Positions 15,471 through 25,127 are shown, numbered from the stretch's first letter. The stretch: 64,000 nucleotides of DNA from a virus (IMGVR_UViG_3300012020_000005:1-64000); one strand, 5' to 3'. Numbers and translations: made by a program. The notes: generated by a model from the sequence alone, not told the origin.

Positions 15471-15520
15471 TCTGTTTTTTAATCTTTTTTGCGTGAAAAT
15501 AAAAAATTATTTATTTTTAC

Positions 15521-15551
15521 TTGCACAGTAAATATTTTATACTTACATTTG
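15521..15551 (+). promoter_or_regulatory. Bacteroidota-type promoter, candidate promoter for the cassette array
   Basis: TTGCA at 15521 and TACATTTG at 15544; last clear promoter seen upstream of the array. Confidence 0.7.
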
Positions 15552-15768
15552 TTGAAAATTAATCAGTTCTTTTACTGTTTTTAATTTTTTTACGGCGAAA
15601 ATAAAAAAATAATAAATTATGAAAACAATATTAATACTACTTATAGGAATATTTATTGAAAAATTTTATAGTCCTAGACTTAGTTGGGTTAAAGAATCTT
15701 CTGTTCTTTTACTTTTTTATTCGGCGAAAAATATTAGAAAACGATTAATACTTTTTAAAATTTAAACT

Positions 15769-16161: not shown

Positions 16162-16348
16162 AACAATTGATTATTACGGAGTACCTTTAACAGTACATTA
16201 TAAAGTTGAGGGTAAGTATTATCCTGCAACTTATTTACAACCCGCTGAATACCCCGAAGTTTATATTGAAGAGATTTATGCGGGAGATGTAAATATATTT
16301 GATATGTTGTTAGAAAGTCAAATAGATGAAATAACAGAAAAATTATAG
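16151..16348 (+). CDS. hypothetical protein
   Basis: Ends about 20 bp before the first attC-like site. Confidence 0.6.
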   Translation: MEIKTIDYYGVPLTVHYKVEGKYYPATYLQPAEYPEVYIEEIYAGDVNIFDMLLESQIDEITEKL

Positions 16349-16365
16349 GTAAATAGTAGTTTTGC

Positions 16366-16491
16366 CAATAACGGTATAGCTTGTAGCCGTATGCCAATAA
16401 AAACAAAACTAACTTAAAATTAAACACAATGAATACAAAACAAATTGAAAATTTAGCCGAAAACGGCAATAAGTCAAAACCGCTGCTATAA
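16366..16491 (+). repeat. attC-like site J1 (degenerate; GCT instead of GTT)
   Basis: CAATAAC at 16366-16372 ... GCTATAA at 16485; weak stem. Confidence 0.55.
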
Positions 16492-16501
16492 GCCGTTTTT
16501 T

Positions 16502-16765
16502 ATGATAGAATATTTTAACCGATATAGTAACACAGATTTACCAGATGATATGGGTAGATGGGCAAGAATAGCAATTTTTAAAAACATTAGAATTGCTTGG
16601 ATTAGCAGATTAGAAAATAAAGGAAAAGTTATATTTAGTGTTTCTTGCCATTTTCCAACTATGCAAAATGATACTGCAAATGAATACAAAATATGTCATT
16701 CATTAGATGAAGCAAAAGAGTTCGTCAATGAGCGTTGGAGTTGGTTTCTAACATCAGTTTCTTAA
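16502..16765 (+). CDS. hypothetical protein, cassette A
   Basis: Bracketed by GCTATAAGCCGTTTT (16485) and AAAATGGCTTATAAC (16764-16778). Confidence 0.65.
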   Translation: MIEYFNRYSNTDLPDDMGRWARIAIFKNIRIAWISRLENKGKVIFSVSCHFPTMQNDTANEYKICHSLDEAKEFVNERWSWFLTSVS

Positions 16766-16771
16766 AATGGC

Positions 16772-16864
16772 TTATAACGGTTGAGTATTGGCAAAATGCC
16801 ACCAGTACAAGCTTTCAAATTAGGCACAAACTATCTGTGGCATTTTGCCAATACTATGTTATAG
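16772..16864 (+). repeat. attC-like site J2
   Basis: AAC 16778; perfect 19-bp inverted repeat 16784-16802/16837-16855; GTT 16858. Confidence 0.85.
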
Positions 16865-16909
16865 GTAGTTGTTTTAAAAATTAGCGTTGGCATTAAAAAC
16901 ACAAACACA

Positions 16910-17092
16910 ATGGGAAATATGAGTTATTGCAGGTTTGAAAACACCTACGGAGATTTACAAGATTGCTACGATGCACTTGGAGAAAAATCATTAGATGAAC
17001 TTTCTGAAACAGAAAAAAAGTATGCAAAGAAGTTGATTAAAATGTGCAGAGAAATTGCTGATGATTTTTTGGAAGATGAAGATGATGAGTAA
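16910..17092 (+). CDS. hypothetical protein, cassette B
   Basis: MGNMSYCRFENT; bracketed by a 22-bp inverted repeat 16858-16879/17108-17129. Confidence 0.7.
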   Translation: MGNMSYCRFENTYGDLQDCYDALGEKSLDELSETEKKYAKKLIKMCREIADDFLEDEDDE

Positions 17093-17122
17093 CGGTGCGG
17101 TGGGGATTTTTAAAACAATTCC

Positions 17123-17258
17123 CTATAACTGTCTTCAACTTGCTCGTCGTTGTGGCGAATGAGCCTAAAACTTAACAAATAACAACTAAATTTTAAAATT
17201 ATGACCAAACTTTCAAACACAGACCCAATGCCCCAATGCGTGCAAACCGATGTTATAT
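17123..17258 (+). repeat. attC-like site J3
   Basis: AAC 17129; imperfect stem; GTT 17252. Confidence 0.7.
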
Positions 17259-17440
17259 GCTGTGATTTTTTCAAGCAAAATATCAAAGAATACGGATGGT
17301 TTAAATTAGACCATTTAGGAGAAGAACAATATTTAATGCCTCATATTTTAGGCACAAAAATTAGAATAAATTATTGTCCAACTTGTGGAAAAGAATGCAG
17401 GGATACTGTTTTAAGTACAGATTTGTATCATAGCATCTAA
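17201..17440 (+). CDS. hypothetical Cys-rich protein, cassette C
   Basis: ATG lies in J3; stop codon is the TAA of TAAC; CPTCG knuckle. Confidence 0.6.
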   Translation: MTKLSNTDPMPQCVQTDVICCDFFKQNIKEYGWFKLDHLGEEQYLMPHILGTKIRINYCPTCGKECRDTVLSTDLYHSI

Positions 17441-17569
17441 CGTTTTGCTACTACAAATCGTTTGGGATTAAGTAAACCAAAATATTCGAGTACTCACGAA
17501 TAAAAACAGGTACAAACTAATTTTTAAATTAATCACAGTTACCCAAATGTTTTGTAGTAGCTGTTATAA
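17435..17569 (+). repeat. attC-like site J4
   Basis: AAC 17441; 20-bp stem 17447-17466/17542-17561 with 2 mismatches; GTT 17563. Confidence 0.85.
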
Positions 17570-17581
17570 GTAGCTTTTATT

Positions 17582-17812
17582 ATGCTTACAATTAAATTAC
17601 TAAAAGAATTGATTAAAGACGTTCCAGATGATGCTATATTTTCTTCAATGCGTTTTGGAAATAATAACGAAATGGATTTTTTTGTTATTAAAAGAGCGTT
17701 ATTAGTTGAAGGTAGTAGAAATAAGTTTTTTGTGTTAAACCAAATGGGGACACATTGGGGAGAAAAATGGGAAAAAGGAGAATATAAAATAATTAAAACA
17801 ATAGAAAAATGA
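17582..17812 (+). CDS. hypothetical protein, cassette D gene 1
   Basis: Directly after core 17563. Confidence 0.6.
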   Translation: MLTIKLLKELIKDVPDDAIFSSMRFGNNNEMDFFVIKRALLVEGSRNKFFVLNQMGTHWGEKWEKGEYKIIKTIEK

Positions 17813-18030
17813 CACAAACAATAGAATGTAAATGTGGTAAAACTTTTGCCGCATCAGGAGTTCCTTATTGCTACACAAATGAGCAATGGCAAGAAGATTT
17901 AAGAGAATACGTAAAACAAGGTTGTACAGTTTCTTTAGTTGAAGATGATAAAGTACAATTTCAACAATGTACTTGCAATGAATTAGATGAACTTAAAGGC
18001 ATTTTCGACACCGTTGTTCTTTTGGAGTAG
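17809..18030 (+). CDS. hypothetical protein, cassette D gene 2
   Basis: ATGA overlap; ends before the inverse core 18041-18055. Confidence 0.6.
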   Translation: MTQTIECKCGKTFAASGVPYCYTNEQWQEDLREYVKQGCTVSLVEDDKVQFQQCTCNELDELKGIFDTVVLLE

Positions 18031-18048
18031 CGATTGTCCTAAAGTTAC

Positions 18049-18180
18049 TTATAACGTTAAGGTGCTTTGCAATATGGCGGTTTCAAGGCACTGCACCTTC
18101 AATTTAGAACTAATGTTTAATCAAGGCACTAACACTGAATTTTGCACTTCACCCGCCATATTGCAAAGCACGTGTTATAG
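18049..18180 (+). repeat. attC-like site J5
   Basis: AAC 18055; perfect 19-bp inverted repeat 18062-18080/18153-18171; GTT 18174. Confidence 0.85.
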
Positions 18181-18198
18181 CCAGTTAATTTTAATCAA

Positions 18199-18411
18199 AT
18201 GTCAAAATTAAATTTGTATCAAAGAAGAAAACAAGAGTGTGGTTATGTTCATGGGATGTACAAACCCGATAAAGCTGATTTTTATTTAATCAAGCAAAAT
18301 GTAGATGAGTATCTAATTGCTTATTTTGATGGGGAGTTTTGGGAAAGTAAAGTAGATAGGCTTATCTGTTGGAGAGAAATACCTAAATCGGATATTTTAG
18401 CTCCGTTTTAA
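18199..18411 (+). CDS. hypothetical protein, cassette E
   Basis: Bracketed by GTTATAGCCAGTTAA and TTAATTGGCTATAAC. Confidence 0.6.
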   Translation: MSKLNLYQRRKQECGYVHGMYKPDKADFYLIKQNVDEYLIAYFDGEFWESKVDRLICWREIPKSDILAPF

Positions 18412-18415
18412 TTGG

Positions 18416-18509
18416 CTATAACGTGATGCGTATATGAGAAGTGGCACTTGTAGAATGTTGAAATTTAGCACAAATGTTTATGTGCCATTTCTTATATACG
18501 CTGTTAGCA
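18416..18509 (+). repeat. attC-like site J6
   Basis: AAC 18422; 20-bp stem 18428-18447/18482-18501; GTT 18503. Confidence 0.85.
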
Positions 18510-18600
18510 GTAGTACGGATTTAAACCACAAATGCTCAATCAAAGAACTGAACCTTTTTCTTTTCTTTTTTGTGCGGTTGGAAAATAAAAAATTAAAAAT

Positions 18601-19422
18601 ATGATTGAGATAAATAAAAATTACAACGAAAGCAATTTAGAAACAATGGAGAAAATGCCTGATTGCTTTGTGGACTTAACGGTAACAAGCCCACCTTATG
18701 ATGGATTAAGAACATATAATGGTTATTCATTCCCTTTTGAGGATATTGCAAATGAGTTATTTAGAATTACAAAAGATGGTGGTGTATTAGTTTGGGTTGT
18801 TGGTGATGCAACTGTGAAAGGTAGTGAAAGTGGAACTAGTTTTAAACAAGCATTGTTTTTTAAAGAGGTAGGTTTTAATTTGCACGATACAATGATGTAT
18901 AGAAAGATAAACTACATACCATTAACACATAATAGATATGAGCAGGAGTTTGAGTATATGTTTATTTTTAGCAAAGGAAAGCCTAAAACCTTTAATCCAA
19001 TAATGGTTGAATGTAAAACAAAAGGAAGTAAAACAAAAGGCAGAACATTTTACCAAACAAATAGCCAAAATAAACCAACAGAAGCGCACAAAAACGATGC
19101 CGTAAAAGAATACAAACAAAAAGGAAATGTATGGGAAATACCTACTAATGCAGGCACAAAAGGACACCCCGCACAATTCCCTGAGCAATTAGCTAACGAC
19201 CATATTATATCATGGTCTAATGAAGGTGATTTAGTTTACGACCCATTCATGGGAAGCGGAACAACAGCAAAAATGAGTATCTTAAATAACCGTAATTGGA
19301 TTGGAAGCGAAATATCTTCTGAATACTGCGATATTATTGAAGAACGAATTAAAAAAGCGTGGGAAGAAAAAAGAAAAGAAAAAGATTTAACGCAGAAAAC
19401 TCTATTCGTAGATGGAATGTAG
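18601..19422 (+). CDS. beta-class DNA amino-methyltransferase (SPPY; possibly m4C), cassette F
   Basis: Motif IV DLTVTSPPY, GHPAQFP, motif I DPFMGSGTT. Confidence 0.9.
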   Translation: MIEINKNYNESNLETMEKMPDCFVDLTVTSPPYDGLRTYNGYSFPFEDIANELFRITKDGGVLVWVVGDATVKGSESGTSFKQALFFKEVGFNLHDTMMYRKINYIPLTHNRYEQEFEYMFIFSKGKPKTFNPIMVECKTKGSKTKGRTFYQTNSQNKPTEAHKNDAVKEYKQKGNVWEIPTNAGTKGHPAQFPEQLANDHIISWSNEGDLVYDPFMGSGTTAKMSILNNRNWIGSEISSEYCDIIEERIKKAWEEKRKEKDLTQKTLFVDGM

Positions 19423-19428
19423 TATTAC

Positions 19429-19561
19429 TGCTAACGGCACTTGGCTTGTGGTCAGGTGCGGAATTTGAAAAACAAAACTTAAAATATAGAACGAATGATG
19501 ATAGTAGAACAAATGTTGAATAACGCACCAACCCCGCTATTGCATATAGCCGATGTTAGTG
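19429..19561 (+). repeat. attC-like site J7
   Basis: AAC 19435; partial stem (GGTGCG/CGCACC); GTT 19555. Confidence 0.7.
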
Positions 19562-20286
19562 GCAGTGCTTTGTTCAATGCTGATTGTATGGATATTTTAC
19601 CTCTTATTCCTGATAAATCGGTTCAACTCATTTTGGCAGATTTGCCTTATGGAACTACTAATTTGAAATGGGATAGTGTGTTAGACCTAAACAAGTTGTG
19701 GCAAGAATACGAAAGAATAATTACTGATAATGGTGCAATAGTTTTAACAGCATCTCAGCCATTTACAACGGTTTTAATAAACTCAAATCCTGCATTATTC
19801 AAATATGAATGGATATGGTTAAAAGATAAACCAAACAACTTTGCACTTGCTAATAAAATGCCAATGAAATATCACGAAAACGTGTTGGTTTTTTATAAAA
19901 AACTGCCAAAATACAATAAGCAAATGGAAAAACGAGATGGTGGTGGAAAAAGGTATAAATATGCAGTAAACTATGAAAACCAACAAAGCGAACATTTAAC
20001 GCTAAAAAATGGTGCAAAGTTTTTTGATATGGAATTTAAAAACCCATCAAGTGTGCAAAAATTCTCAACAGGGAGAAGGCAGGATTTAAAACACCCAACA
20101 CAAAAACCGTTGGAAATGATGAAGTATTTTATTGCGACATATTCAGATGAAAACGATTATGTTCTTGACAATACAATGGGAGTAGGAACAACTTGCGTAG
20201 GAGCAAAGGAGTTGAACCGAAAGTTTATCGGGATTGAAAAAGAGGTAAAATATTATGACTTAGCAGTTGCTCGTGTGTTCGGGTAG
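19495..20286 (+). CDS. beta-class DNA amino-methyltransferase, cassette G
   Basis: LILADLPY, HPTQKP, DNTMGVGTT; start codon lies in J7. Confidence 0.9.
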   Translation: MMIVEQMLNNAPTPLLHIADVSGSALFNADCMDILPLIPDKSVQLILADLPYGTTNLKWDSVLDLNKLWQEYERIITDNGAIVLTASQPFTTVLINSNPALFKYEWIWLKDKPNNFALANKMPMKYHENVLVFYKKLPKYNKQMEKRDGGGKRYKYAVNYENQQSEHLTLKNGAKFFDMEFKNPSSVQKFSTGRRQDLKHPTQKPLEMMKYFIATYSDENDYVLDNTMGVGTTCVGAKELNRKFIGIEKEVKYYDLAVARVFG

Positions 20287-20292
20287 CATTGC

Positions 20293-20391
20293 CACTAACG
20301 TTTTGCGGCTTTGTGTCTGTTTGCCCCTTGCACATAGCTTCAATTTACCACAAATATTGATGGGGCAAATAGCACAAAACCGCTGTTATAA
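20293..20391 (+). repeat. attC-like site J8
   Basis: AAC 20299; stem 20305-20327/20362-20383; GTT 20385. Confidence 0.85.
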
Positions 20392-20461
20392 GCTGGCTGC
20401 GGTTAATTAAACGAAAATATAAATACGAAGAACAAAACAACTTTTAATAAATTTTTAAGCG

Positions 20462-20995
20462 ATGGGAATAGATAAAATAGGAAATAAGAAAAACTCATTT
20501 ACGAGTAATAGTATTGAATACAGCACACCTTTGGCGATAGTTCAGCCATTAATAAACGAATTTGGAATAACAAAAGATGTGTGTGCAAGCCAAACAAACC
20601 ATAAGTTACCTGACTATTGGAATAAAGAAGATAATGCTTTGACAAAGGATTGGATTGGTAACTGCTGGATGAACCCGCCATTTGATAGAAACTTGGCAAA
20701 GTGGGTAAGAAAAGCATCTGATGAAGCCGATAAAAATGGAGGAACAAAGGTTTGTTTGATACCTGTTAGGAGTAATACTAAATGGTGGGCTGAACTATCA
20801 ATAAAATCGGAAATTCGTTTTATCAATGGCGAAGTAAATTTCAATGATGAACCAAGAGGTTTATGGATGGGAATGTGTATAATCATATTCGGAGAAAAAG
20901 CTAAAAAAGGAACATTCAGTATTATTGATTACAGGAGCGTTGGCAAAAATTTATTAAAAGTTGAAACGGAATTGTCAAACGAAGCAGGAACGTAG
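20462..20995 (+). CDS. phage Dam-like N6-adenine methyltransferase, cassette H
   Basis: YSTP, DVCAS, CWMNPPF, LIPVRSNTKWW, IRFING. Confidence 0.85.
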   Translation: MGIDKIGNKKNSFTSNSIEYSTPLAIVQPLINEFGITKDVCASQTNHKLPDYWNKEDNALTKDWIGNCWMNPPFDRNLAKWVRKASDEADKNGGTKVCLIPVRSNTKWWAELSIKSEIRFINGEVNFNDEPRGLWMGMCIIIFGEKAKKGTFSIIDYRSVGKNLLKVETELSNEAGT

Positions 20996-21003
20996 CAGAT
21001 TGC

Positions 21004-21083
21004 TTATAATAGGCGCGCGCTTGGCGTCAGGCTTGTGAGCTTGCTCCAAGCGTGGAGTTGGGCGAAGGGCGCGCCTATTGGGC
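21004..21083 (+). repeat. attC-like site J9 (GC-rich; AAT/ATT variant ends)
   Basis: Perfect inverted repeat AATAGGCGCGC 21008-21018 / GCGCGCCTATT 21069-21079. Confidence 0.7.
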
Positions 21084-21110
21084 AAAGGTGCTGTGCGCCT
21101 TTTGCCCAAC
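21077..21110 (+). other. gene-less 34-bp mini-cassette I
   Basis: ATTGGGCAAAGG...CCTTTTGCCCAAC between J9 and J10. Confidence 0.6.
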
Positions 21111-21236
21111 GGTTTGGGGCTTTACGTAGTGGGGGATTATACCCACAAAAGCCCAATAGAATTACAAAAGTATAATAAAAGCACAAAAGTATGATAGAAG
21201 AACAAAAGCCCCCATTACGTAAAACCCCTGTTAGTA
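21104..21236 (+). repeat. attC-like site J10
   Basis: AAC 21110; 20-bp stem 21116-21135/21209-21228; GTT 21230. Confidence 0.85.
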
Positions 21237-21856
21237 GCAGTACGGGTAATAGTGATTGGTCTGGCAACAAAAATTCAATTTATAAAACGCTTGGGGCTTC
21301 CAACCATACGGATAAGGAACGCCAAAGTGAAGATTATTACGCAACTGAACCGAAAGCAGTTGAATTGCTTTTAGATTTAGAGGACTTTTCACAACTATAT
21401 GTTTGGGAATGTGCCTGTGGTCAAGGTCATTTATCGGAAGCAATGATAAAAAAAGGAATAAAAGTAAATTCAAGTGATTTAGTTTTAAGAGGATATGATA
21501 AGGCTTATATGTATGATTTTTTAAGCGAAGAAAACAAAGAGTGGAAAGGTCATATTATTACAAATCCACCTTATAAATTCGCAAAGGAATTTGTTTATAA
21601 AGCATTATCAATAGTTCCAAATGGTTGTAAAGTTGCAATGTTTCTAAAAGTTCAATTTTTAGAAGGTAAGGCACGAAAGAAACTATTTGAAATATATCCA
21701 CCTAAAACTGTTTACGTTTCAAGCAGTCGTTTATTATGTGCCAAAAATGGCGAATTTGAACAAATGATTGCTGGTGGTGGTTCGGCTGTTGCTTACGCTT
21801 GGTTCGTTTGGGAAAAAGGATTTAATGGTCAAACAGAATTACAATGGTTCAATTAG
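21191..21856 (+). CDS. DNA amino-methyltransferase (NPPY), cassette J
   Basis: DYYATEP, WECACGQGHLS, IITNPPY, AYAWFVW; start codon lies in J10. Confidence 0.85.
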   Translation: MIEEQKPPLRKTPVSSSTGNSDWSGNKNSIYKTLGASNHTDKERQSEDYYATEPKAVELLLDLEDFSQLYVWECACGQGHLSEAMIKKGIKVNSSDLVLRGYDKAYMYDFLSEENKEWKGHIITNPPYKFAKEFVYKALSIVPNGCKVAMFLKVQFLEGKARKKLFEIYPPKTVYVSSSRLLCAKNGEFEQMIAGGGSAVAYAWFVWEKGFNGQTELQWFN

Positions 21857-21875
21857 CAACGAATGGTAGTATTGC

Positions 21876-22006
21876 TACTAACGGACGGCGATTGTCGTGG
21901 TTGGGATAAAACAAAGACTGATAATTAAATTTAAAACTAAACTGAAAAATGAAAACAAATGTAAAAGTTAAAGACAAAACCCAATCACTACAATCGTATG
22001 TTAGTG
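21876..22006 (+). repeat. attC-like site J11
   Basis: AAC 21882; 17-bp stem from 21889 with 2 mismatches; GTT 22000. Confidence 0.8.
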
Positions 22007-22434
22007 TTTCGGTTACGGCTTCCGAGTTGCGAATAGGGAATTTAGTACACTTTCCTTTTACGGCAGAAAATGTAAAAGTATTAGGAATTAATGCTCGTGA
22101 ATATAAATCTGAAATAATTCATACAATCTCTTTTGAAAAAGGAACGAATTTATATTGTGAAAAGCCTTCTGTATTAAAACCTATCCCATTGTCGAATGAA
22201 TGGTTAGAAAAATTAGGATTTTATATTGTTTCTGATAATGAATATAAAACAAGATTTGATATTCTAAAAGAAGGCAGAATTGATTTTATAAGAGTAAAAC
22301 ACGAATTGTGTGATTCTGGAGTTCGGTTTGAAGGAGCTATGTTGAAAGGAATTGATTATGTACACCAATTGCAAAACTTCTATTTTATAATTACTGGCTC
22401 GGAATTGCAGATTGGTTCTATAACTGAACACTAA
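21949..22434 (+). CDS. hypothetical phage protein, cassette K
   Basis: ELRIGN...KPIPLSNEWLEKLGF...HQLQN; start in J11; stop is the TAA of TAAC. Confidence 0.7.
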   Translation: MKTNVKVKDKTQSLQSYVSVSVTASELRIGNLVHFPFTAENVKVLGINAREYKSEIIHTISFEKGTNLYCEKPSVLKPIPLSNEWLEKLGFYIVSDNEYKTRFDILKEGRIDFIRVKHELCDSGVRFEGAMLKGIDYVHQLQNFYFIITGSELQIGSITEH

Positions 22435-22483
22435 CGTTTTGCAGCTATGCGCTCGTTTTAATGGCGCATAGGTGCTGTTATGC
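22429..22483 (+). repeat. attC-like site J12 (shortest, 55 bp)
   Basis: AAC 22435; CTATGCGC/GCGCATAG stem; GTT 22477. Confidence 0.85.
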
Positions 22484-22544
22484 GCTGGCACGGTTGATTA
22501 AACGATAAACTTAAATTGAAACACAAAACAAAATTTTTATTAAA

Positions 22545-22763
22545 ATGAGCGAGGGTAAAAAAGCAAAAGAACTAATTGATAAGCACCGTAAATGGGTTAA
22601 TCAAATTGATGGCAGTTACTCCGAAACAGAGTATGCTAAAAAAGCTGCGCTTATTACCGTTAATGAAATTCTTGAAGTAGAAAGCAAGAAAATGATAAAC
22701 GGTGATGTGAATGAATATGATTATTGGGAACAAGTAAAAAAGAAAATAAATGGCAGTATTTGA
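22545..22763 (+). CDS. hypothetical protein, cassette L gene 1
   Basis: After core 22477. Confidence 0.6.
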   Translation: MSEGKKAKELIDKHRKWVNQIDGSYSETEYAKKAALITVNEILEVESKKMINGDVNEYDYWEQVKKKINGSI

Positions 22764-23271
22764 TAAAGAAAAATTGTTTGATGCAGAGAAGGTAAACAAA
22801 AGCCTTGAAAGCATTGTGTGGGGAACACCAACAGAGTTGTTTGCCCCGATTGATAAAGAGTTCAGATTTACACTTGACGTATGTGCAATATCAGAAAACG
22901 CAAAGTGTGAAAGGTTTTTTACACCACAAGATGACGGACTTGCCCAAAGTTGGGAGAATGAAGTTTGCTGGTGTAATCCACCATACGGGAAAGATGTAGT
23001 AAAGTGGTGTAAAAAAGCATTACAGGAAAGTAAAAGAGGGGCAACAACGGTATTGCTGATACCTTGCAAAACGAACACAAATTGGTGGCACGACTTTGTA
23101 ATACCTTATGCTGAAATTCGTTTTTTGCGTGGCAGAGTGGCTTTTGTTTACCCTAACGGAGAGCAGAGCAAACAAGCATTACCGTGGCCGCTTGCTTTTG
23201 TCATTTATCGTGGGTCGGAAGATTTTAATAAAAATTTTGAACCGCAAACTCTTTTTGGAAACGAAATGTAG
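22750..23271 (+). CDS. phage Dam-like N6-adenine methyltransferase, cassette L gene 2
   Basis: WGTP, FTLDVCA, WCNPPYG, EIRFLRGR. Confidence 0.85.
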   Translation: MAVFDKEKLFDAEKVNKSLESIVWGTPTELFAPIDKEFRFTLDVCAISENAKCERFFTPQDDGLAQSWENEVCWCNPPYGKDVVKWCKKALQESKRGATTVLLIPCKTNTNWWHDFVIPYAEIRFLRGRVAFVYPNGEQSKQALPWPLAFVIYRGSEDFNKNFEPQTLFGNEM

Positions 23272-23278
23272 TGCTTGC

Positions 23279-23409
23279 GTATAACGGCTACGGCTATGTG
23301 CAGTAGCGGATTTGAAACACAAAACTTAAAATTATGATACGAAGATTATTTGAAAAACTAAGGCTGATTAAACCACGTCAGCCGCACTTGCCACAAACCA
23401 ATGTTAGTG
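23279..23409 (+). repeat. attC-like site J13
   Basis: AAC 23285; partial stem; GTT 23403. Confidence 0.7.
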
Positions 23410-23588
23410 GCAGTTTTAAAGAGTGGTATTTAGAATTTCGCAACGAAATGGCAAAATCTTTTGGTGTTAATTATAGCATTTCTATTGCAAGTTGGACTTT
23501 TAGTGAAAATCATAAACACTATTACGATAGGGGACTTACACCAAAAGAGGCAGTATTGGAATATGCAGCGTCAAAAAATTGCCACTAA
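23334..23588 (+). CDS. hypothetical protein, cassette M
   Basis: Start in J13; stop is the TAA of TAAC. Confidence 0.6.
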   Translation: MIRRLFEKLRLIKPRQPHLPQTNVSGSFKEWYLEFRNEMAKSFGVNYSISIASWTFSENHKHYYDRGLTPKEAVLEYAASKNCH

Positions 23589-23719
23589 CGGTTAGTATAT
23601 GGAAAGTAGGCGATAGGAAGGTATGAACCAATGGAAGCCTAAACGACACACTAAAACAAGGACAAGAGCCTTGAAATGTTACCAAGTGTTTAGCCTATTT
23701 TTTATATACATTGTTATGT
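23583..23719 (+). repeat. attC-like site J14
   Basis: AAC 23589; GTATAT...TAGGC/GCCTA...ATATAC stem; GTT 23713. Confidence 0.8.
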
Positions 23720-23824
23720 ACTGTATAGTGACTTTTAAGCAATAAACTTTAATTAAAGAACGAAACTAAGTAATAATATTTTGTGCGGTGGCAAATTGCT
23801 GAGGCACGAAGCAAAACAAAGACA

Positions 23825-24799
23825 ATGATTAAACTATACAAAGGCGATTGCCTTATTGAAAGCGATAAAATAGAAAGTGGTAGTGTTGATTTGATATTAA
23901 CTGATTTGCCATTTGGTACTTTAAAAGGTGCTACATTGACAAGTTCAAAAACAAGAAACAATGAGTATTCTTGGGATAATATTATTGATACGAATAAAAT
24001 TTATAAGATAGCAAACAGAATACTTAGGAAAAACGGTAAAATGTTATTGTTTTGTCAAGAGCCATTTACAACTGAATTGATAAACAAAGCAATACCAAAT
24101 ATACCTTTAAGTTATAGAGCAATATGGGAAAAGAATGATTTTGCAAATTGTTTGTTTGCAAAAAAAGCAATGGTAAATTTTTACGAAGATATTCTAGTTT
24201 TTAGCAAAAATGAAGATACAGAAAAAGCACACCCTTTGAGAGAGTATTTTTATACTGAATACGAAAAAACAGGTTTGACCTATAAAGAAATAAACAGAGA
24301 TTATTTAGAAACCACTTTTGAAGGTGGCGGTGGAATGGCTTACAATATGCTTTGTAGAACACGTTTGTATTTTAGTATGCCAACAGAAGAGGCTTATAGT
24401 AGATTGCAGAAAACTGGATATTTTAAAAAGCCTTATGAAGAGCTTAAAATAGAAGACGAAGCGTTTAAAAACAAAATGAAAAGCACATTTAACCTTTGGG
24501 AAGGTAAAAAATACAAAAGTAATATACTTAAATACAAAAAAGATTATGATGGCTACCACCCAACGCAAAAGCCAGTTTTATTGTTAGAGGACTTAATAAA
24601 AACTTTTAGCAACGAAAATGATTTAGTAGTTGATTTAACTATGGGTTCTGGTAGCACTATGGTAGCCTGCAAAAACACCAATAGAAACGGAATAGGTATT
24701 GAAATGAATGACGAGTATTTTAGTATTGCTGAGAAAAGGGTGGAAAAAAATATTATTACGACTGGTGAGCAAACAAGTATATTAGACGAACTGAACTAA
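23825..24799 (+). CDS. beta-class DNA amino-methyltransferase, cassette N
   Basis: LILTDLPF, YHPTQKP, DLTMGSGST; ATG 23825 preferred over the track start at 23783. Confidence 0.9.
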   Translation: MIKLYKGDCLIESDKIESGSVDLILTDLPFGTLKGATLTSSKTRNNEYSWDNIIDTNKIYKIANRILRKNGKMLLFCQEPFTTELINKAIPNIPLSYRAIWEKNDFANCLFAKKAMVNFYEDILVFSKNEDTEKAHPLREYFYTEYEKTGLTYKEINRDYLETTFEGGGGMAYNMLCRTRLYFSMPTEEAYSRLQKTGYFKKPYEELKIEDEAFKNKMKSTFNLWEGKKYKSNILKYKKDYDGYHPTQKPVLLLEDLIKTFSNENDLVVDLTMGSGSTMVACKNTNRNGIGIEMNDEYFSIAEKRVEKNIITTGEQTSILDELN

Positions 24800-24866
24800 G
24801 CTATATTGTACATAACTATTTACTAAGCGTTACTAAAGAGGTAAAACACTAATAAAATTAAGACTT

Positions 24867-25127
24867 ATGATTACCACAATAGAATTTAAATATGGTTTTA
24901 TTTATAAAGGAGTTAGGTATGCTTGGAAAAATAAAAAATTATACAGACTTCCTTTTGAAAGAAATCTAAGAACTTACAGATTAAAAGAAATCCCTCAATA
25001 TGTTTTTAAATCAACGCAAGTTTATAATGTGCAAAGAAGTAAGTTAACTATAAATAAATTAAAATTTTTAACAGAAAAAGTTGATTGGAATATTCAAACA
25101 ATAGTAGAGGATGAATGTCCTTTTTAA
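24867..25127 (+). CDS. hypothetical protein
   Basis: First ORF after the array. Confidence 0.6.
   Translation: MITTIEFKYGFIYKGVRYAWKNKKLYRLPFERNLRTYRLKEIPQYVFKSTQVYNVQRSKLTINKLKFLTEKVDWNIQTIVEDECPF

Follow-up and report, generated by a model that had tools for sequence, protein, structure and literature searches.

The stretch of DNA analysed here, referred to as the window, comprises the first 64 kb of an 81-kb phage contig from IMG/VR (IMGVR_UViG_3300012020_000005; CheckV completeness 57%). It contains a family-A DNA polymerase gene and large structural genes, and the region from the polymerase gene to position 24816 is occupied on the + strand by an array of ~13 small gene modules, or cassettes, which we denote by letters. 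Five open reading frames (ORFs) of this array, C, G, J, K, and M, are the subject of this work, as each begins within the attC-like junction that precedes it. The phage appears to be of a Flavobacterium type; because its polymerase is only ~35% identical to those of Cellulophaga phages, this host assignment rests on the relatives of the array. Coordinates are collected in Table 1.

Anatomy of the array and of the five ORFs that open in its junctions

Private inverted repeats (consensus GTTA-N4-CAGT ... ATTG-N4-TAAC) flank each module, and position 11 of the repeat is a G.T juxtaposition in 66 of the 69 modules compared across loci. The junctions between modules open with the core TAAC and close with the inverse core GTTA, and most fold as long hairpins. 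This TAAC ... GTTA arrangement is found at every junction, and the match to the full RYYYAAC/GTTRRRY consensus is only loose. With DNA parameters, an end-to-end fold is obtained for 9 of the 13 window junctions but for no more than two of the five that carry leaders. Six of the window modules are DNA methyltransferases: PF01555 is the family of F, G, and N, PF05869 that of H and of the second gene in L, and J is a methyltransferase candidate by virtue of an NPPY motif.

A first-pass annotation of the window had proposed that the five ORFs start inside the preceding junction and read through GTT in frame, and translation bears this out. In each case, the ATG lies 39–69 nucleotides (nt) before GTTA, GTT is a valine codon, and the junction peptides are QTDVICC, ADVSGSA, TPVSSST, SYVSVSV, and TNVSGSF for C, G, J, K, and M, respectively. 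No usable in-cassette start exists in any of the five, as the next in-frame ATG would drop 30–83 residues (codon 46 of 79 in C, codon 31 in G, approximately codon 84 in J, and codon 39 of 84 in M). The alignment of G begins at residue 27 against M.MboIIA and at residue 25 against CcrM; the methyltransferase fold therefore begins 4–6 residues after the valine, and a start at the internal MDILPL, whose methionine sits within the conserved xxGDC motif, would delete that motif, as the annotation had pointed out. Distant homologs of K likewise align only from residues 18–24 onward.

The label of hairpin, which had been given to all five upstream junctions, holds in part. The x/J and J/K junctions fold end to end (x/J at -15.4 kcal/mol with z -3.0), and B/C, F/G, and L/M fail to do so under DNA parameters. 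Intact relatives of the B/C junction precede the C homologs of two related loci (L143 and L144), and a related leader precedes a K homolog in L115.

A sixth leader lies in the first junction of the array, J1. Its length of 20 amino acids (aa) and the gap of 10 nt that separates it from the ATG of cassette A at 16502 were as first described. The inverse core of J1, however, is not the GTT at 16495: the private repeat of cassette A, which matches 16764-16778 at 13 of 15 positions, puts it at 16485-16488, where it reads GCTA, a mutated GTTA. This inverse core region, GCTA-TAAG-CCGT, holds the stop codon of the leader. The arrangement resembles that of ORF-11 in integrons, with a short leader, a stop in the core, and then the gene's own ATG.

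Table 1. Features of the cassette array, in window coordinates
Feature	Position	Strand	Remarks
Cassette array, ~13 small gene modules	16376-24816	+	Private inverted repeats and attC-like junctions between modules
20-aa leader, upstream ORF MNTKQIENLAENGNKSKPLL, in first junction J1	16430-16491	+	Stop TAA 16489-16491, in inverse core region
B/C junction	17126-17255	+	TAAC 17126-17129; loop ATG 17201; GTTA 17252-17255; no end-to-end fold
ORF C, 79 aa, no Pfam family	17201-17440	+	V18 = GTT 17252; stop is the TAA of TAAC
F/G junction, chimera	19432-19558	+	Type-2 left arm (19436-19461), type-1 right arm and leader (ATG 19495, GTTA 19555-19558)
ORF G, N6_N4 DNA methyltransferase, PF01555 (residues 43-258)	19495-20286	+	V21 = GTT 19555; fold from approximately residue 25
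Degenerate attC after cassette H	21001-21110	+	Cores TAAT and ATTG; then empty mini-cassette (~21083-21110)
x/J hairpin, intact	21107-21233	+	23-bp stem; loop ATG 21191; GTTA 21230-21233
ORF J, 221 aa, NPPY motif, probable methyltransferase	21191-21856	+	V14 = GTT 21230
J/K hairpin, intact	21879-22003	+	Loop ATG 21949; GTTA 22000-22003
ORF K, 161 aa, no family	21949-22434	+	V18 = GTT 22000; stop is the TAA of TAAC
L/M junction, reciprocal chimera	23282-23406	+	Type-1 left arm (23286-23309), type-2 right arm and leader (ATG 23334, GTTA 23403-23406)
ORF M, 84 aa, no family	23334-23588	+	V24 = GTT 23403; TAAC supplies the stop TAA
Last TAAC core of the array	24813-24816	+	No hairpin after it; in relatives, Xer-like recombinase gene begins 40-60 nt on

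Leaders encoded by the junctions and their exchange among related phages

The same layout recurs in 137 related loci that we gathered by way of the five ORFs. A finder that allows gaps in the stem, as an ungapped one missed bulged sites, returned 187 junction hairpins in these loci and 22 in shuffled ones. We used a Smith-Waterman threshold of 14, at which shuffled hits amount to ~12% of the real ones, and rejected a threshold of 11, at which the two are equal. Long hairpins (at least 100 nt, from junctions of ~120 nt) and short ones (junctions of ~80 nt) differ sharply: a loop ATG whose ORF stays open for at least 40 codons past GTT is present in 82 of 118 long hairpins compared with 3 of 59 short ones. 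Where an ORF of at least 40 codons lies downstream, 84 of 110 hairpins have a loop ATG in frame through GTT, and the core is then read as GTT (Val) in 54, as TTA (Leu) in 21, and as Cys-Tyr in nine. The short-peptide form, in which a stop in the core ends the leader, is found in J1 and in 11 of the 118 long hairpins, and genes behind short hairpins have their own ATG, 3–88 nt past GTT. On the other side of the junction, upstream ORFs end with the TAA of TAAC in 45 cases and exactly 12 nt before TAAC in 43, so gene bodies fill the space between cores. Cultured Flavobacterium phages of the genus Muminvirus contain these arrays as well; in filifjonk9-1, the RefSeq annotation calls six ORFs from loop ATGs, and gp12 and gp07 of this phage combine one leader with different bodies. 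The layout of the five ORFs is real and general, far beyond what chance would produce.

In some loci, the loop-initiated leader is a complete lipoprotein-type signal peptide (L004:3811-3990, L027:5550-5730, and L026:435-620) whose hydrophobic core is coded by the hairpin arm on the 3' side together with GTTA; one example is MKHKFSITRLTLAFASLL, continued by LAVVLSSC. Judged from these sequences, such leaders look functional, and the recombination-site sequence of these loci would thus act at the level of the protein.

Frame conservation of this extent bears on the possibility that the leaders are not part of the proteins, either because the true starts are non-ATG codons after GTT or because the five genes are decaying, unexpressed cargo. 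Expression from the loop ATG is read from sequence, three of the five junctions are degenerate in the window, and TTG codons that might serve instead occur at codon 26 of G and codon 28 of K. Against this stand the open loop-ATG frame of the 82 long hairpins, spread over many phages; the frame of the G family, open in all ~25 loci; the absence from fused bodies of the 5' untranslated region (UTR) and ATG seen in self-starting relatives; the conserved G fold, which starts so soon after the valine; and the signal peptides that extend across GTT. We regard untranslated leaders as most improbable.

Homologous genes carry different leaders. The G family has at least three, MMIVEQML..HIADV, MDIEKLKY..HIADV, and ..NPQYCQCSV, and the frame is kept open through GTT in all of its ~25 loci, including all those with a type-1 hairpin. 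We call type 1 the hairpin that encodes MMIVEQML..HIADV and precedes G homologs, and type 2 the one that encodes MIRRLFEKL..QTNV and precedes M homologs; both have matching arms in other loci. The type-1 leader also occurs on an unrelated body in L030, the type-2 leader is found on M and six other genes (seven bodies), all in phase, and the leader MIDRITEQPFCQTR precedes three different bodies. In the J family, ~110 homologs begin M-x-K directly ahead of DWTGN. Array relatives of J have their own 5'UTR and ATG after GTT, elements that are missing from the leader-fused bodies; fusion to a loop ATG is confined to the window and L034, with different leaders in the two. The check that had been suggested, for homologs whose N-termini differ and break at the valine of GTT, is thus positive in the G and J families, and the start codon with the first 13–23 residues behaves as a junction module separable from the gene body.

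The first-pass annotation had further suggested that reordering of cassettes could act as an on/off or N-terminal-swap switch. Among the related loci, we saw no startless body joined out of phase to its leader, and all three reading phases coexist within single arrays (e.g., L008 and L014). The only uncoupled form seen is a short leader, similar to an upstream ORF, before a gene with its own start. Because no out-of-frame pair of leader and body was seen, the on/off switch stays speculation. A related reading takes the long hairpins as a standardized set of interchangeable expression adaptors, each with an initiation region, a start codon, and a leader, and has the Xer-like recombinase described below join any startless body to any adaptor of the same fixed phase (Val, Leu, or Cys-Tyr). 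We hold this to be unlikely; if true, it would represent a prokaryotic analog of phase-compatible exon shuffling, in which mismatched phases could store a cassette in silent form.

Ownership and exchange of the junction

The first-pass annotation followed classical integron polarity, in which the hairpin is an attC at the 3' end of the upstream cassette, crossover falls at G/TT (the slash marks the crossover), and a startless gene takes its start and N-terminus from the cassette that comes to lie before it, so that reordering turns genes on, off, or over to another N-terminus. The linkage pattern runs in the opposite direction. Where two loci have a similar hairpin, the downstream protein alone is common to them in 104 pairs and the upstream protein alone in 2 (neither in 26 and both in 8), which argues against assigning the junction to the upstream cassette; when a version at the nucleotide level is included, the range is 2–3 pairs for the upstream gene compared with 93–104 for the downstream gene. 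The share of distinct partners per context is 0.94 for a hairpin arm and its upstream gene, 0.68–0.72 for an arm and its downstream gene, and 0.37 for the two arms of a hairpin. Collection of the loci by way of the five ORFs biases this census, and G serves as a fair control for linkage, since it anchored the locus search on both sides: the hairpin upstream of G is nearly always type 1, and those downstream vary. In addition, arrays end at a bare TAAC without a hairpin, as seen for the window, filifjonk, and the two arrays of Polaribacter phage P12002L.

Several observations nonetheless favor classical polarity. Breaks fall exactly at GTT in L030, in the seven type-2 bodies, and in the varied leaders of G and J; a contig of sequencing run X2 diverges from the window just past the GTTA at 18506; the unpaired spacers are asymmetric, with 5 nt after TAAC compared with 1–2 nt before GTTA, which puts the extra bases on the R''/L'' side as in a classical attC; and ORF-11 of attI1 provides a precedent for a leader that spans the crossover point. 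Beyond the linkage counts, the constancy of the G upstream hairpin, and the hairpin-free array ends with the recombinase located at that end, two features speak against it. G.T mismatches of the stems fall on the sense rather than the antisense strand (280 compared with 73), and random joining should make out-of-phase junctions common, yet none was found despite the three coexisting phases. We consider classical polarity decidedly unlikely. The accompanying claim that translation of a gene depends on the cassette upstream of it finds no support; because the junction does not lie in the upstream cassette and arrays end at a bare TAAC, the identity of the upstream gene does not appear to decide translation.

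Exchange also takes place within the loop. A conserved loop motif, TTGAAA..CACAAAAC, is common to the hairpin types, half-hairpins are often shared between different loci, and cases of loop-to-loop exchange include the two window chimeras, L006, L013, and filifjonk gp12. The reciprocal chimeras at F/G and L/M are what insertion of a G-H-J-K-L block into the loop of a type-2 hairpin would leave. Unchimeric forms of these hairpins are found in environmental contigs, one of which joins 19462 to 23310 over 22 shared loop letters, and several of which join 23332 back to 19494/19498. The data from sequencing runs consist of contigs throughout, those of RNA libraries included, and so bear on sequence content but not on transcript ends, strand, expression level, or start sites; window parts left uncovered in runs X2, X3, and X19 are uninformative. 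Run X2 contains 63% of the sampled words of 16300-24900, and between runs X1 and X2, taken from wastewater in one study a year apart, the array (16300-24900) is ~99% identical and differs in cassette content. An alternative boundary of the cassette within the loop, with the right arm on the 5' side of a gene pairing with the left arm on its 3' side, was rejected, as the arms of G are not complementary.

At the far end of the array, ~10 contigs encode an Xer-like tyrosine recombinase of 267–275 aa in cassette orientation, 40–60 nt after the last TAAC. The enzyme scores 150–165 bits on the integron integrase model TIGR02249, under the cut-off of 265, and because the model matches in two stretches, the insertion typical of IntI is missing. 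Among prokaryote genomes, one for each species, the recombinase profile had a single close match, a contig of a Saprospiraceae metagenome-assembled genome in which TAAC is followed by the recombinase. Read on the opposite strand, the arrangement has the topology of an integron (recombinase, attI-like site, and cassettes with a distal attC), with all cargo in antisense. Directly after the last TAAC and before the recombinase, a conserved AT-rich motif (~ATAWATATGTA) is found at L028:1676-1718 and L140:3440-3497 and also in L141, L142, L157, L158, L161, and L162; we note it as a candidate attI-like site. The window retains a ..AAACACTAATAAAAT.. part of it at 24817-24866, with an ORF of 86 aa at the place expected for the recombinase. 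Experiments of Qi et al. 2023 (PMC9892861) showed that IntI1 recombines the array-terminal site of P12002L, read antisense; in gene sense, their crossover corresponds to TAA/C, and it was the sense strand that they delivered. These assays too speak against classical polarity. In P12002L, the two methyltransferase arrays (L154, 29090-29247 and 37200-37304, minus strand) end in the same ~60 nt after the last TAAC, and these ~60 nt are the 'attC2' site of the IntI1 assays (Qi et al. 2023, PMC9892861). For the arrays studied here, we infer both the recombining strand and catalysis by the Xer-like recombinase.

Whether a site-specific system is involved at all is a separate matter. The junctions might be stem-loops, acting at the RNA level or in regulation, that expose the translation initiation region and serve in processing or stabilization, with gene shuffling left to homologous recombination of the phages alone, between conserved junction sequences, in the manner of the T4-type PeSL modules; the loop ATG would still be the start. 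The G.T bias on the transcribed strand fits an RNA structure, the loop motif is conserved among hairpin types, loop-to-loop exchange is documented down to the joint of 22 nt, the recombinase is missing from this contig and from a complete cultured genome, and PeSL modules set a precedent. Stem-loops alone do not account for private repeats with a variable but compensated N4 and a fixed G.T (66/69) that bound every gene at 4-base cores, for breakpoints that are sharp at TAAC and GTTA, for the recombinase fixed beside the last TAAC in ~10 contigs, or for the recombination of a related site by IntI1. We therefore judge this explanation unlikely.

Taken together, we think it probable that the five ORFs are real genes translated from the loop ATG of the attC-like junction module directly upstream, and that this junction does not form the 3' end of the cassette before it. 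Initiation would occur at a loop ATG that follows an A-rich leader without a Shine-Dalgarno sequence, a kind of start that is expected in Bacteroidota. The ORF would then cross the 3' hairpin arm and the inverse core (V-S-x-S from GTTA-N4-CAGT) before entering a body without a start of its own. Long junctions (~120 nt) would thus serve as portable modules of start codon plus leader and short ones (~80 nt) would precede genes with their own ATG, a layout that is probably the standard design of an integron-like array family in Flavobacteriia phages. The junction would either belong to the gene that it starts, as its 5' part, or be a module in its own right, and translation would consequently depend on the junction module in front and not on the upstream gene. 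Exchange would take place at TAA/C, less often at G/TTA, which swaps the leader, and by homologous recombination in the conserved loop motif. Of this picture, the anatomy, the preserved open frames, the exchange of modules, and the linkage pattern are shown by the sequences themselves.

A number of findings weigh against this reading. Use of the loop ATG as a translation start is something we infer from frame conservation, three of the five leader junctions no longer fold in the window, and the extra unpaired bases lie on the R''/L'' (TAAC) side, the side expected for the classical attC orientation. Cassette H is 95% identical to its counterpart in L018 while both flanking hairpins differ, and the K/L hairpin is 100% identical to one in L003 with both flanks different. 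Breaks in environmental contigs fall at TAAC and GTTA alike. Hairpin and downstream gene are thus not strictly linked, and the junction is therefore treated as a module with three exchange points, TAA/C, G/TTA, and the loop. Across G bodies with only 64% identity, the type-1 hairpins keep 92% identity, the unpaired loop counted in, and therefore the type-1 module has either spread among G genes or is far more constrained than they are. No tyrosine recombinase was found in the 81-kb contig, which is 57% complete, or in the complete filifjonk genome, and for a typical P12002L hairpin between two genes, no product of IntI1 was verified (Qi et al. 2023, PMC9892861).

Some further features of the array are worth noting. 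The empty mini-cassette after H consists of its own inverted repeat alone (TTGGGCAAAGG ... CCTTTTGCCCAA), and the hairpin that starts J comes next. The 5'UTR, ATG, and first six codons of cassette L (22545-22563) are common to contigs of runs X2 and X3, which then diverge and read ..ILLGDCLEL, the methyltransferase N-terminus of a different gene; this sharing of an N-terminus would lie outside any hairpin. A motif, TTTTGYGCGG / ..GAAAATAAAAAA, is repeated upstream of several genes in and before the array (15480-15620, 18560-18600, and 23770-23800) and is a candidate for a phage promoter or terminator-promoter unit. Neither Rfam at gathering thresholds nor ARAGORN gave a match within the window.

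Comparison with known systems

The usual picture of an integron cassette is an ORF with a recombination site behind it, expressed from outside the cassette. In the arrays studied here, a site of the recombination type stands before the gene and doubles as its translation start and its first 13–25 codons. Gene callers and tools that set cassette boundaries will accordingly misplace starts or assign sites to the wrong gene in these phages. The arrays also offer a testable case in which a DNA recombination signal and a coding sequence occupy the same bases, with Flavobacterium sp. LMO6/LMO9 and their vB_FspS phages as cultured models. We found no paper on start codons or N-termini inside such sites, on their 5' polarity, or on an Xer-like partner. 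Methyltransferase presence correlates with plating efficiency in cultured Muminvirus phages (PMC7077304); as the cargo consists mostly of orphan DNA methyltransferases, the design therefore bears on how phages exchange anti-restriction genes.

The closest precedent for the leaders is found in attI1, where ORF-11 and ORF-18 place an ATG and its initiation region in the recombination site, with a short ORF running across the crossover (Hanau-Bercot et al. 2002; review PMC8876359). The stop of ORF-11 comes from the core of the incoming cassette, ORF-11 serves cassettes without an initiation region of their own, and N-terminal fusions are known as well, among them AAC(6')-Ib with the N-terminus of OXA-1 (Hanau-Bercot et al. 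2002; review PMC8876359). The five junctions, J1, and the 82 of 118 long hairpins likewise combine an initiation region and ATG within the site with an ORF across the crossover. J1 is a close match to ORF-11, as the stop falls inside the core and the next ATG follows 10 nt on. Unlike the single attI of ORF-11, however, the phage starts lie in attC-like hairpin loops all along the array, and the setting is that of Bacteroidota phages without Shine-Dalgarno use. Instead of the translational coupling of ORF-11, the phage leader is mostly fused in frame and adds 13–25 N-terminal residues; the five fused ORFs thus go further than ORF-11, because the leader becomes part of the protein.

As a class, the arrays belong beside the attC-like cassette arrays (CALINs) with orphan methyltransferase cargo that were reported in virulent phages, including P12002L (Qi et al. 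2023, PMC9892861). Shared features are the inverse AAC/GTT cores, imperfect internal inverted repeats, folded sites of 50–130 nt between single genes, orphan DNA methyltransferases, and private core pairing, which implies a circular intermediate; P12002L has the same type of site. Unlike classical cassettes, the site is linked to the downstream gene, so that the cargo is antisense with respect to classical polarity. The R box, with its fixed G.T, reaches 12 nt and is thereby longer than in a classical attC, and the conserved loop carries start signals. The recombinase differs from that of integrons as well, being Xer-like, without the IntI insertion, and encoded where the array ends on its 3' side.

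A further parallel comes from T4-type phages, whose PeSL modules are conserved regulatory promoter/stem-loop elements between accessory genes of a plastic region, where single genes or blocks are moved by recombination from module to module (Arbiol et al. 2010, PMC2839356). Insertion of the G-to-L block, with its chimeras at F/G and L/M, resembles this kind of exchange by homologous recombination in a conserved intergenic module. PeSL modules are nonetheless without AAC/GTT cores, private terminal repeats, a tyrosine recombinase, or encoded N-termini, whereas the phage array has both the 4-base cores and the private repeats.

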